DNA of 11,754 nucleotides from a virus (taxonomy: Duplodnaviria > Heunggongvirae > Uroviricota > Caudoviricetes), in IMG/VR virus record IMGVR_UViG_2671181100_000003, positions 1 to 11,754 of that record, one strand, 5' to 3'. Positions 2,807-6,364 of this stretch are shown piece after piece. The first letter of the stretch is position 1. Each line of letters opens with the position of its first letter. A program made the translations under genes and the position numbers. The notes under the pieces were generated by a model, which was not told the DNA's origin, ran no database searches, and saw only the letters and a program-made list of their open reading frames with translations.

Positions 2807-3322
2807 GTGATCGCTGAATTAACGGCAGCAATGACGGCTATTCGTGAAATCGCCCAGATTGCAAAACTAATGAACGAGGCAAAAACTCAAGCTGAAGTAA
2901 ATGCGGCTATTGGTGAGCTGAACTCAAAGCTTGCGTCTATTCAGCGCGAATGCGTGTCTCTCGTTGAACTGCTGGGCTCTTATCAAGAAATAAATGCTTC
3001 TCTCAAAGCTAAAATTGCAGAATTCGAAAACTTTGAGGCTCAGACGGAAGGCTATATCCTTAACCAACTTGAGTCGGGTACTTTTGTATACTCGAAGGAG
3101 GTAATCGTGAACGGTGACAGCATAACCATGCATCTTTGCCCAAAATGTTTTGGACAAAAGATAGTATCGATACTTCAACCATTCCCGGTTAGCGAAGATG
3201 AGCTTTTTCATAAAAGCAGGTGCCTCCACTGTGAAAATAAGTTTCTGATGAATAAAAATCCAGATTACGTATCGCCTCCATCCATTGAGGAGTTGGCCAG
3301 AAAACTTAACGGCAATCTGTAG
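2807..3322 (+). CDS. Coiled-coil protein with C-terminal CxxC...CxxC zinc-ribbon (accessory gene in the immunity region, function unknown)
   Basis: ORF-track frame 2543..3322 trimmed to GTG 2807 (AAGAG 8 nt upstream) or ATG 2831. The N-terminal ~80 aa are heptad-like and A/E/K/L-rich; the C-terminus carries CPKCF and CLHCENK ~24 aa apart. GC is ~42% against ~52-55% in the replication genes. Convergent with the repressor, own terminator downstream. Confidence 0.55.
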   Translation: MIAELTAAMTAIREIAQIAKLMNEAKTQAEVNAAIGELNSKLASIQRECVSLVELLGSYQEINASLKAKIAEFENFEAQTEGYILNQLESGTFVYSKEVIVNGDSITMHLCPKCFGQKIVSILQPFPVSEDELFHKSRCLHCENKFLMNKNPDYVSPPSIEELARKLNGNL

Positions 3323-3347
3323 ATTGCTACTGTTGTGGATATCCAGA

Positions 3348-3360
3348 TTGTTAAAGAGCG
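3348..3360 (-). promoter_or_regulatory. boxA-like element (minus-strand CGCTCTTTAACAA), candidate nut-type antitermination site
   Basis: Minus-strand 13-mer CGCTCTTTAACAA matches the boxA consensus (rrn boxA TGCTCTTTAACAA; lambda nut boxA CGCTCTTA...) as I recall it. It is flanked by hairpins at 3362-3378 and 3312-3327 and lies downstream of a candidate leftward promoter at 3468-3496. Confidence 0.35.
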
Positions 3361-3361
3361 A

Positions 3362-3384
3362 AGCGTCCTGTAGGGCGCTTTTTT
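3362..3384 (+). terminator. Rho-independent terminator of the coiled-coil/zinc-ribbon gene
   Basis: Stem AGCGTCC / GGGCGCT (7 bp, one G-U) with loop TGTA, followed by TTTTTT at 3379-3384, ~40 nt after the stop codon at 3320-3322. Confidence 0.5.
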
Positions 3385-3465
3385 GTTGCTAACGAATCAT
3401 CCTGGACTTCATATGCCCCAGGCGGCTACTTCGTGGGCGTCCTGCCTGTTCGTTATCTTTGATAT

Positions 3466-3553
3466 AAAATCTAACTTAACTTAGCTATTATGGCAAGAGA
3501 AAACACCAAACTTTTCTTAGTTCGGTGCCTTAGTTAGAGAAGAGAGGTCTTAG
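3466..3553 (-). promoter_or_regulatory. Candidate left operator/promoter (OL/PL-like): leftward promoter flanked by CTTAG half-sites
   Basis: On the minus strand: -35 TTGCCA (plus 3491-3496), 17-bp spacer, -10 TAGATT (plus 3468-3473). CTTAG occurs four times within 3480-3553 (3480, 3516, 3529, 3549), the same pentamer that forms the operators between the repressor and cro. Confidence 0.3.
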
Positions 3554-4273: not shown

Positions 4274-4474
4274 ATGACAACTGACGATATCGAAAGCTAC
4301 TTCGGCAGTATTGAGAAAGTTGCTGCTTTTTTCGGCATAACAACTGAAGCCGTTTATCAGTGGCGAAACCGTCCGGGCCAGTTAATTCCAAAAGGACGTG
4401 CAGCAGAAGCTGCATATAGAACTTGCGGACGGTTGCCATTTAAACCTGAGCTTTATGAAAAATCTAATGGATAA
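4274..4474 (+). CDS. cro: Cro-type repressor (P22 Cro-like)
   Basis: 66 aa; DIESYFGSIEKVAAFFGITTEAVYQW resembles P22 Cro (DVIDHFGTQRAVAKALGISDAAVSQW). Divergent from the repressor; GGAGAG upstream. Confidence 0.8.
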   Translation: MTTDDIESYFGSIEKVAAFFGITTEAVYQWRNRPGQLIPKGRAAEAAYRTCGRLPFKPELYEKSNG

Positions 4475-5063
4475 ATCGATTAACAGAAACCACAGAACGA
4501 TGAGGCTAACCGTGGGTAAGCATCACTGGAAAGTAGAAAAACAGCCTGAGTGGTACGTGAAAGCTGTCAGAAAAACTATCGCAGCGTTGCCGGGTGGTTA
4601 CGCTGAAGCTGCTGACTGGCTGGATGTAACAGAGAACGCATTATTTAACCGCCTTCGTGCCGATGGCGATCAGATTTTCCCGCTGGGATGGGCAATGATT
4701 TTGCAACGTGCTGGTGGAACTCACTTCATTGCTGACGCTGTGGCGCAGTCTGCAAATGGCGTCTTTGTGTCTCTTCCTGATGTCGAGGATGTGGACAACG
4801 CCGATATCAACCAACGCCTGCTGGAAGTCATTGAACAGATCGGCAGTTATTCAAAACAGATTCGTTCAGCAATTGAAGACGGTGTAGTGGAACCGCATGA
4901 GAAGACAGCAATTAACGATGAGCTGTACCTCTCAATTTCGAAGCTGCAGGAGCATGCAGCACTGGTCTACAAAATCTTTTGCGTTTCAGAAAGTAGTGAC
5001 GCCCGCGAGTGTGCAGCTCCGGGCGCCGTGGCGTGTCGTGACTGTGGAGAAACTAACGCATGA
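4455..5063 (+). CDS. CII-position early regulatory protein (CII/CP76-like by position; start uncertain)
   Basis: ORF-track frame 4398..5063. The GTG at 4398 has no usable SD spacing and overlaps cro by 77 nt; ATG 4455 or ATG 4467 (overlapping the cro stop) are likelier starts. About 200 aa, first gene after cro. Family assignment is by position and vague recollection only. Confidence 0.45.
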
Positions 5064-5398
5064 ACAGTTTAACAACACACTACCGTCGCTCGCAACTGAT
5101 TGCGCTTCCTGTACCGGGTGGAAAAGCGAAGGTGGAGTATTGCTATGCAGTAAATGTACCAGGTGACAGGGAAATTGTAACCCACAGCTTTGCAGAGTGG
5201 GCTGTGGGTGATTTCAACCGGCAGAAGGAGACAGTCCTTTGCGACAAGTTAACCGCTGGTTCAAAGATCACTACGGAGTGCCCGTCAGAGTCATTCGTTG
5301 GGAGCCGGAAACACAACGTGTTATCTACCTCCGCGAAGGCTATGAGCATGAGTGCTTCAGCCCGCTCGAACAGTTTCGTCGTAAATTCAGGGAAATAG
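5060..5398 (+). CDS. Hypothetical protein (112 aa as called); only the N-terminal ~55 aa look protein-like, possible frameshifted or overlapping gene
   Basis: ATGA overlap with the preceding stop (5060-5063). The N-terminal part ([52 protein letters not shown]) looks coding; the C-terminal ~50 aa are S/A-rich low complexity and overlap a better-looking frame (see 5239..5418). Confidence 0.3.
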
Positions 5399-5418
5399 AG
5401 GTCGGTCATGAGCACTAA
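5239..5418 (+). CDS. Small hypothetical protein (59 aa) from a TTG start; alternatively the C-terminal half of a frameshifted gene starting at 5060
   Basis: Not in the ORF track (no ATG). AAGGAG at 5225-5230, 8 nt before TTG 5239. Translation [59 protein letters not shown] is compositionally protein-like. Stop at 5416-5418 overlaps the O-like start. Confidence 0.3.
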
Positions 5419-6364
5419 ATTAACCGGCTATGTATGGGATGGTTGCGCTGCATCAGGCATGAAATTATCCAGCGTGGCAATTATGGCCCGCCTGGCTGAT
5501 TTCAGTAATGACGAAGGTGTGTGCTGGCCATCAATTGAAACCATTGCCCGCCAGATTGGCGCGGGGATGAGTACCGTCAGAACGGCTATCGCACGGCTGG
5601 AAGCAGAAGGCTGGTTAACGCGTAGGGCGCGTCGCCAGGGTAACCGCAATGCGTCGAATGTTTATCAGCTTAACGTTGCGAAGCTTCAGGCAGCGGCATT
5701 TTCTCAACTGTCAGATTCTGACCCGTCAAAATCTGACGCATCAAAATCTGACGCATCAAAATCTGACCCGTCAAAATTTGATGCGTCGAAATCTGGCAAA
5801 AAAGCGGGTTTTCACCCGTCAGAATCTGGTGGGGATCCGTCAGTAAAATCAAAACATGATCCGTCAGATAAAAAAACTTCTCGTCCGGACGCTTCGCAAC
5901 CGGACACGCAGACGGCTGAACAGGATTTTTTAACTCGCCATCCTGATGCGGTTGTATTCAGCCCTAAAAAGCGCCAGTGGGGGACGCAGGATGATTTGAC
6001 CTGCGCACAGTGGCTCTGGAAAAAAATCATCGCCCTGTACGAGCATGCCGCCGAATGTGACGGCGAGGTGGTTCGTCCCAAAGAACCGAACTGGACAGCC
6101 TGGGCAAACGAAATTCGCCTGATGTGTGTGCAGGATGGTCGTACTCATAAACAAATCTGCGAGATGTACAGCCGCGTCAGTCGCGATCCGTTCTGGTGCC
6201 GTAACGTGCTCAGCCCGTCGAAGCTGCGGGAAAAATGGGATGAGCTTTCCCTGCGCTTATCGCCGTCCGTCAGCACGTACACCGAAAAACGCGAAGACCC
6301 GTACTTCAAAGCCAGTTACGACAACGTGGACTACAGCCAGATCCCGGCAGGATTCAGGGGGTGA
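5408..6364 (+). CDS. Replication initiator, lambda O-like (N-terminal HTH DNA-binding domain, repeat linker, C-terminal domain)
   Basis: 318 aa, GAGGT 5 nt upstream. N-terminal HTH (SSVAIMARLADFSNDEGVCWPSIETIARQIGAGMSTVRTAIARLEAEGWL) is typical of phage replication initiators. An internal tandem-repeat block encodes (S/P)KSDA pentapeptides, like the iteron-encoded linker of lambda O. Position after cro/CII. Confidence 0.7.
   Translation: MSTKLTGYVWDGCAASGMKLSSVAIMARLADFSNDEGVCWPSIETIARQIGAGMSTVRTAIARLEAEGWLTRRARRQGNRNASNVYQLNVAKLQAAAFSQLSDSDPSKSDASKSDASKSDPSKFDASKSGKKAGFHPSESGGDPSVKSKHDPSDKKTSRPDASQPDTQTAEQDFLTRHPDAVVFSPKKRQWGTQDDLTCAQWLWKKIIALYEHAAECDGEVVRPKEPNWTAWANEIRLMCVQDGRTHKQICEMYSRVSRDPFWCRNVLSPSKLREKWDELSLRLSPSVSTYTEKREDPYFKASYDNVDYSQIPAGFRG
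5711..5800. repeat. Six tandem 15-bp repeats inside the O-like gene: candidate replication-origin iterons
   Basis: Units TCAGATTCTGACCCG / TCAAAATCTGACGCA (x2) / TCAAAATCTGACCCG / TCAAAATTTGATGCG / TCGAAATCTGGCAAA. Each junction forms the dyad CGTCA-AAATC-TGACG. Degenerate copies and an A-rich stretch follow to ~5880. Confidence 0.5.

Follow-up and report, generated by a model that had tools for sequence, protein, structure and literature searches.

The stretch of DNA analysed here, called the window in the following, comprises the 11,754 nucleotides (nt) of the IMG/VR virus record IMGVR_UViG_2671181100_000003 and is a lambdoid immunity and replication region of the e14/SfII type from Escherichia coli. 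Similar sequence is present in 2,701 of the 5,426 complete genomes searched. Between the gene of the CII-like regulator YmfL and that of an O-like replication initiator, two genes are read from the same strand in different frames and share about 160 bases: ymfM and a small gene encoding a protein of the family DUF4222 (Table 1). A preliminary description of the window, made from the letters alone, had drawn attention to the two open frames, and its coordinates all hold, that is both frames, the Shine-Dalgarno (SD) sequence AAGGAG with its 8-nt spacer to the TTG at 5239 and the stops ending at 5398 and 5418. As alternatives to overlapping genes it had named a frameshift and a pseudogene. The comparisons presented below argue for two genuine genes; the frame of ymfM is held open by selection across the embedded DUF4222 gene, and its C-terminal tail probably acts mainly as a translational bridge.

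The upstream open reading frame (ORF) is ymfM (b1148) of the E. coli K-12 prophage e14, the K-12 copy being AAC74232.1 or YMFM_ECOLI (positions 3167–3505 of locus L002). It is matched from end to end by phrog_1170 (positions 1–112 of 112, E = 5e-70) and is named ymfM in the source records. The protein differs from K-12 YmfM in three residues of the tail, and both genes lie in the context ymfL–ymfM–O. The S/A-rich C-terminal half mentioned in the preliminary description corresponds to the last ~50 residues, which are rich in serine, alanine and threonine. The second ORF is a full-length match to Pfam PF13973 (DUF4222) with 67.3–69 bits and an E value of about 1e-19 at a gathering threshold of 27 bits, covering positions 1–52 or 3–52 of the 53 profile positions, and it also belongs to phrog_1343; a sequence match to DUF4222 was not found in the PDB. 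The RefSeq records of strain 1283 (L001) and of a K-12-like O16:H48 strain (L002) contain DUF4222 and omit ymfM. In the records of SfII and vB_EcoM-720R4 ymfM is the sole call, and it is also called by GenBank for K-12 and by PHROGs. NCBI nonetheless labels some fragments 'cell division inhibitor YmfM, partial'. Although the annotation sources disagree, the comparative data indicate that both sense genes are real.

Table 1 Features of the ymfM–DUF4222 region (positions in the window)
Feature	Position	Strand	Remarks
ymfL	4512..5063	+	CII-like regulator; Phage_CP76 (PF06892) and NCBIfam YmfL (NF041471); RefSeq gene at the same place
ymfM ORF	5060..5398	+	ATG at 5060, 112 codons, TAG at 5396–5398
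ymfM N-terminal module (N module, ~60 codons)	5060..5239	+	amino-acid constraint of ymfM confined to this part
ymfM tail (52 codons)	5240..5395	+	+1 frame of DUF4222; predicted disordered; stop-free; without amino-acid constraint
Shine-Dalgarno AAGGAG of the DUF4222 gene	5225..5230	+	8-nt spacer to the start
DUF4222 gene	5239..5418	+	59 codons, TTG start, TAA stop at 5416–5418
ymfM stop TAG	5396..5398	+	formed by ATA, a rare Ile codon of DUF4222, and the following G
O-like replication initiator	5408..6364	+	HTH_36 (Pfam, annotation); same reading frame as ymfM (frame arithmetic)
Antisense ORF (90 codons)	5143..5415	-	codon-aligned antisense frame of DUF4222; judged spurious

As read from the sequence, the TGA stop of ymfL overlaps the ATG of ymfM in an ATGA at 5060–5063. 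The DUF4222 frame is −1 relative to ymfM and opens behind a TGA at 5209–5211; from 5212 to 5398 (187 nt) a stop occurs neither in the one frame nor in the other. The last 11 nt of the DUF4222 gene are at the same time the first of the O-like gene. The TAG of ymfM is situated 9 nt upstream of the O-like ATG and in frame with it, and abuts the AGG/GAGG Shine-Dalgarno motif of the O-like gene.

A search seeded with DUF4222 proteins alone gave 49 loci from more than ten enterobacterial genera (Escherichia, Shigella, Citrobacter, Enterobacter, Kosakonia, Kluyvera, Raoultella, Leclercia, Phytobacter, Atlantibacter, Pantoea). In every one of them an upstream ORF of the MNSLT type passes through DUF4222 in the +1 frame. 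These ORFs comprise 109–117 codons in total and end at the same place, with the exception of two SfV-type loci without that stop; their upstream modules are of several diverged types, yet they can be aligned as a single family. The 112-codon ymfM ORF is intact in 79 of 80 viral contigs (53 distinct DNA versions), and the two-frame layout is also found in functional phages, e.g. SfII and SfIV. For DUF4222 the start column is ATG, GTG or TTG in 48/48 sequences and coincides in the alignment with the ATG or GTG at which stand-alone homologues begin; furthermore, an SD-like motif precedes the start by 4–12 nt in 42 of 50 loci. DUF4222 is always located directly upstream of the replication gene in related phages, and more distant members (Serratia, Yersinia, Citrobacter and other phages) are likewise directly upstream of a replication gene and overlap it. 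On this comparative evidence DUF4222 is a genuine protein-coding gene with its own start. The overlapping genes considered in the preliminary description are thus confirmed as two separately initiated genes whose overlap has been kept across genera. As refuting outcomes the same description had named homologues with two independent conserved genes and the same overlap, or protein-level conservation of one frame only; both are seen within the overlap.

The idea of one ancestral gene broken by a frameshift mutation or a sequencing error, and by now a pseudogene, could draw on the side-by-side open frames in a prophage region and on the fact that e14 is defective in K-12. It has next to no probability left, as the two-frame layout is shared by all 49 loci from more than ten genera and by functional phages such as SfII and SfIV, and the ORF is intact in nearly all viral contigs. 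None of the 49 loci has a fused gene. Moreover, a finished chromosome (strain 1283) matches the window at 100 % identity, and the N module as well as DUF4222 are under purifying selection.

The two modules also occur apart from each other. Stand-alone N-module genes have 59–64 codons and no tail, and their stop overlaps the next start or is close to it. In the loci L062 and L064 a Rha/Ant gene stands between a gene for the N module (59–63 aa) and one for DUF4222 (59 aa). Phages with a stand-alone N module have the order cI, cro, ymfL-like, N module, Rha/Ant, DUF4222, replication gene. By this comparison of gene orders, the e14-type layout looks like the product of a loss of the intervening gene, after which the N-module ORF would have been read into DUF4222.

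A programmed −1 frameshift near 5212–5240, producing a functional fusion of N module and DUF4222, would be compatible with the −1 position of the DUF4222 frame and with its being open from 5212, i.e. already upstream of the TTG at 5239; in addition, a few such fusions exist in the databases (P0030, P0052, P0059, P0065). However, these are singletons or tiny clusters with differing breakpoints, and apart from them single fused ORFs are missing among the homologues. An X XXY YYZ heptamer is absent from 5212–5245, the fold of 5190–5290 is no better than that of shuffled sequences (z = −0.77), and the junction sequence differs in the Klebsiella-type locus. Furthermore, the zero frame does not stop soon, as it remains open for 52 more codons, and the −1 frame upstream of the DUF4222 start is closed, at variable places. 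With the separate modules and the SD and start codon that DUF4222 has of its own in a homologous column, a frameshift, whether programmed, mutational or an error, loses its footing, and the programmed variant is most improbable.

Openness of the +1 frame in one sequence alone is not beyond chance: a +1 frame of 52 codons is open in 12 % of the windows taken from flanking genes and in ~10 % of synonymous re-codings of the same gene. It becomes significant because the +1 (ymfM) frame is open across the DUF4222 region in 50/50 related sequences and the +2 frame in 1/50. Given the DUF4222 protein and the local codon usage, the probability of an open +1 frame is 0.03–0.21 (mean 0.086). Since pairwise synonymous difference (pS) is saturated (median 0.68), relatedness cannot account for the universal openness; 13 sequences are mutually divergent at pS ≥ 0.6 and 19 at pS ≥ 0.5. 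For the 13 saturated sequences the joint probability of being open is ~4e-7, a value obtained here by multiplication of the within-gene-shuffle probabilities.

The avoidance is also visible codon by codon. Where the next codon starts with A (A or G in the case of Ile), a purine-ending Val, Leu or Ile codon would create a stop in the ymfM frame. Such codons were used in 0 of 171 cases at these sites in comparison to 68 of 227 elsewhere in the gene (p = 2e-19), and in the subset of 13 sequences in 0/52 compared to 19/53 (p = 5e-7). In the DUF4222 columns 4, 18 and 28 NTG and NTA are never used; in columns 14, 29 and 31 GTG, ATA and CTG are used freely. DUF4222 genes without an N module in front of them served as controls, and five of seven carry 1–6 stops in the +1 frame. 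Comparison over saturated distances therefore shows an ymfM frame kept free of stops by selection.

These data also bear on a simpler explanation, according to which DUF4222 is the only gene that matters and the tail is unselected read-through after deletion of the N-module stop, open by chance. The tail is indeed free of amino-acid conservation, a single +1 frame will be open by chance about as often as in the re-codings mentioned above, and the phages with Rha/Ant between the modules suggest an origin by deletion. However, no lineage has acquired a stop in spite of synonymous saturation, the avoidance is position-specific, and rare codons place the stop (see below), which makes an accident of this kind very unlikely.

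Selection on the amino acids was estimated by Nei-Gojobori counting of nonsynonymous and synonymous substitution rates (dN and dS). In the DUF4222 frame dN/dS is about 0.1 (0.06–0.13), i.e. purifying selection is strong, and its dS of 1.2–1.6 equals that of codons 1–90 of the next gene (1.44–1.52), so that extra constraint on the synonymous sites of DUF4222 is not apparent overall. The N module of ymfM has a dN/dS of 0.31–0.42, the tail one of 1.6–6.9. The comparison of these values places the amino-acid constraint of the shared stretch in the DUF4222 frame only. The same picture is given by the three bases of the overlap in which the window and K-12 differ (5319, 5340, 5352): all are third positions of DUF4222 and silent there, and they change V/G, A/V and S/N in YmfM. 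Such a signature, a frame shielded from stops whose amino acids are free to change, is unusual.

The end of the ymfM frame is fixed as well. DUF4222 column 56 is an NTA codon (ATA, TTA, GTA or CTA, all of them rare) in 46 of 48 sequences, no matter whether Ile, Leu or Val is encoded. The distance from the ymfM stop to the ATG of the next gene, with which it is in frame, amounts to 9 nt in 45/49 loci and to 6 nt in two; behind the stop there is an (A/G)GG motif resembling a Shine-Dalgarno sequence. In contrast to this, the position of the DUF4222 stop varies between 11 and 92 nt past the downstream ATG. Thus ymfM and the O-like gene show the conserved geometry of stop, start and SD that characterizes a translationally coupled pair. 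The downstream genes have several dissimilar N-termini, and most of them contain HTH_36 and/or Phg_2220_C domains. These N-termini (MSTKL..., MSLLM..., MSQIFE..., MNTLIQ..., MKNHE...) mostly begin at one shared ATGAG (~position 1670, L007-L055) lying within the conserved His-Glu codons of DUF4222. This suggests a joint of mosaic recombination exactly at the downstream start codon.

From these observations the following course of translation is proposed. Ribosomes would start on ymfM at ATG 5060, coupled to ymfL through the ATGA overlap, and would continue for 52 codons past the N module across DUF4222, which has an independent start of its own, TTG 5239 preceded by AAGGAG. In this way ribosomes entering at ymfL/ymfM may be carried across the embedded gene and would reach their stop at the Shine-Dalgarno sequence in front of the O-like gene, whose translation would thereby be coupled, either by termination-reinitiation or because the site is kept open. 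Two same-strand genes in different frames, with a selected open ymfM frame and a tail mainly used as translational bridge, are probably the best description of the locus.

Several points weigh against the bridge. The coupling step is drawn from geometry alone, and the 11-nt overlap of DUF4222 with the O start could supply coupling without any ymfM tail. A significant RNA structure in need of unwinding is not seen in the region of the O start (z = +1.2 in comparison to shuffled sequences), and the literature searched contains no ribosome-profiling paper that mentions ymfM. SfV-type phages lack the ymfM stop, and the frame continues there to 279–384 codons; the +1 frame is also open in two of the seven control DUF4222 genes. 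Finally, the tail is richer in S/T/A/G (z = 6.8) and poorer in aromatic residues (z = −6.5) than synonymous re-codings, and this composition could mean that the peptide itself matters.

The main rival to the bridge starts from this last point and regards the tail as a functional disordered C-terminal extension, e.g. for division inhibition, for binding of a partner or as a degradation tag, with the frame being kept for its peptide. It would agree with stop avoidance, as this implies translation of the ymfM frame, with the predicted disorder, with the composition and with a few synonymous sites that are oddly fixed. However, the composition bias is largely a shared preference for C-ending codons, common to the overlap and the neighbouring gene (0.73 vs 0.66, p = 0.08), and this preference explains most of the departure. 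The tail has the high dN/dS given above, and the synonymous sites of DUF4222 evolve at the rate of the neighbouring gene. Furthermore, the stand-alone N modules do without any tail, and the placement of the stop exactly 9 nt before the next ATG is left unexplained. A peptide function of the tail is therefore rated as rather unlikely.

The fixed synonymous sites concern DUF4222 column 5 (5251–5253), where Asn5 is AAC in 42/42 sequences, and column 28 (5320–5322), where Val28 is GTT in 46/47. Amid the saturated synonymous divergence elsewhere, these codons keep a Thr and a Leu constant in the tail of YmfM (motifs LT and LS). A residue of the tail, the context of initiation or the RNA could be the cause.

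Structure prediction by AlphaFold2 also separates the parts of ymfM. The N module (residues 10–66 of YmfM) is predicted to be folded (pLDDT 74–86) with three strands and a helix, and a significant structural neighbour of this module was not found; residues 68–112, i.e. the tail, are disordered with pLDDT below 40. For DUF4222 a confident barrel of five strands with a short helix was obtained (pLDDT 84), and DUF4222 is thus predicted to be a small Tudor/SH3-like beta-barrel protein. The fold matches generic Tudor/SH3/KOW barrels only, and therefore no specific function of DUF4222 follows from it. At the level of RNA, a comparison of the whole window with Rfam gave no match, and a scan for promoters and terminators gave nothing on the plus strand inside the overlap. 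In the E. coli type a 6-bp hairpin with a loop of 5 nt can form at 5223–5241, in which GAAGGA of the Shine-Dalgarno region pairs with UCCUUU, a segment that extends into the UUG start. Such a hairpin could tie the initiation of DUF4222 to the passage of ribosomes in the ymfM frame; compared with shuffled sequences it is not significant, and the corresponding Klebsiella-type sequence differs.

The overlap has consequences for the assignment of SfiC. YmfM was reported to be the division inhibitor SfiC of e14, which acts in the SOS response (Ansari et al., bioRxiv 10.1101/2020.11.19.390815). The cloned K-12 ymfM ORF in pBAD24 led to filamentation and a block of the FtsZ ring, and a deletion of ymfM in a sulA mutant resulted in shorter SOS filaments; the whole ORF was cloned, a whole-gene deletion was used and a frame-specific mutant was not reported (bioRxiv 10.1101/2020.11.19.390815). 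Larger fragments had been recovered in earlier screens. The published clone also holds the SD, the start and codons 1–53 of DUF4222, i.e. its whole fold, and the published deletion takes out both genes. As the clone also carries DUF4222, the product active in filamentation could be the N module, full-length YmfM or DUF4222. In the literature searched ymfM and DUF4222 are never mentioned together, and DUF4222 as such appears in five papers only. The proposal that ymfM settles the 35-year-old question which e14 gene is SfiC thus comes from a fragment that encodes three candidate products. Two exchanges would separate them: C5245T would put a stop in DUF4222 and be silent in YmfM, and T5250G would put a stop in YmfM and be silent in DUF4222. 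A bolder version of the bridge, in which the tail is kept open purely for the passage of ribosomes without any selection on the peptide, and in which SfiC activity may belong to the N module or to DUF4222, is conceivable and is offered tentatively.

Some further observations concern variants and neighbours of the two genes. In phages of the SfV, ST64B and Stx-phage types (SfV orf37 = L056 1352–2188; L053 1349–2503) an ORF of 279–384 codons in the ymfM frame crosses DUF4222, which is unannotated there, and enters a part that carries the labels 'transcriptional regulator', 'antirepressor' or 'Rha' in the annotation. From the tail to the Rha domain there are ~100 codons, which SfV and L053 share as a conserved segment. 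Truncated YmfM variants of E. coli proved to be rearrangement junctions and not point nonsense mutations. Some records of Klebsiella and Escherichia phages list the antisense ORF as a hypothetical protein (e.g. L003 1709–2056, minus strand). It corresponds to the codon-aligned antisense frame, which is open in just 37/50 loci (the other two antisense frames in 0/50), and most likely is a mis-annotation; stops in this frame require TTA, CTA or TCA codons in the sense gene. The ymfL frame is already open from GTG 4398, overlapping the end of the cro-like gene (4274–4474); the RefSeq start is at 4512. Inside the O-like gene about five tandem 15-bp repeats with the consensus TCTGACCCGTCAAAA are located at 5717–5795 and encode SKSDASKSD repeats. 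They look like origin iterons, comparable to the lambda ori within O.

In comparison to the published YmfM/SfiC the gene described here is the same, the published treatment being that of a simple gene of 112 codons. Like members of PF13973/phrog_1343 in general, DUF4222 is located directly upstream of a replication-initiator gene and overlaps it; what is added here is that the upstream gene reads through it in a second frame. Programmed −1 frameshifting as in lambda G/GT or dnaX also involves two open frames in −1 relation at a gene junction, but here a slippery heptamer and a conserved stimulator are missing, the zero frame is long and the second frame has an independent start. Termination-reinitiation, known from trpB-trpA and from ATGA overlaps of phages, resembles the ATGA at ymfL-ymfM and the close stop, start and SD at the O-like gene. 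However, the upstream ORF would here cross a whole independent gene to reach the restart site, a coupling to which the geometry points. In phage lambda, the whole of Rz1 is contained in Rz, and the proteins of both frames are constrained and interact with each other. The present pair is likewise an out-of-frame overlap of a small gene with a larger ORF on the same strand in a lambdoid phage, conserved in relatives, but the overlapped part of the ymfM frame shows stop avoidance only and no amino-acid constraint. It is uncommon for Bacteria and their phages to have long same-strand overlaps that are kept across genera. Each of the two ORFs is known by itself; their conserved overlap and its signature of selection appear to be undescribed, and with them it can be asked cleanly whether selection may favour an ORF for being translated and not for its product.

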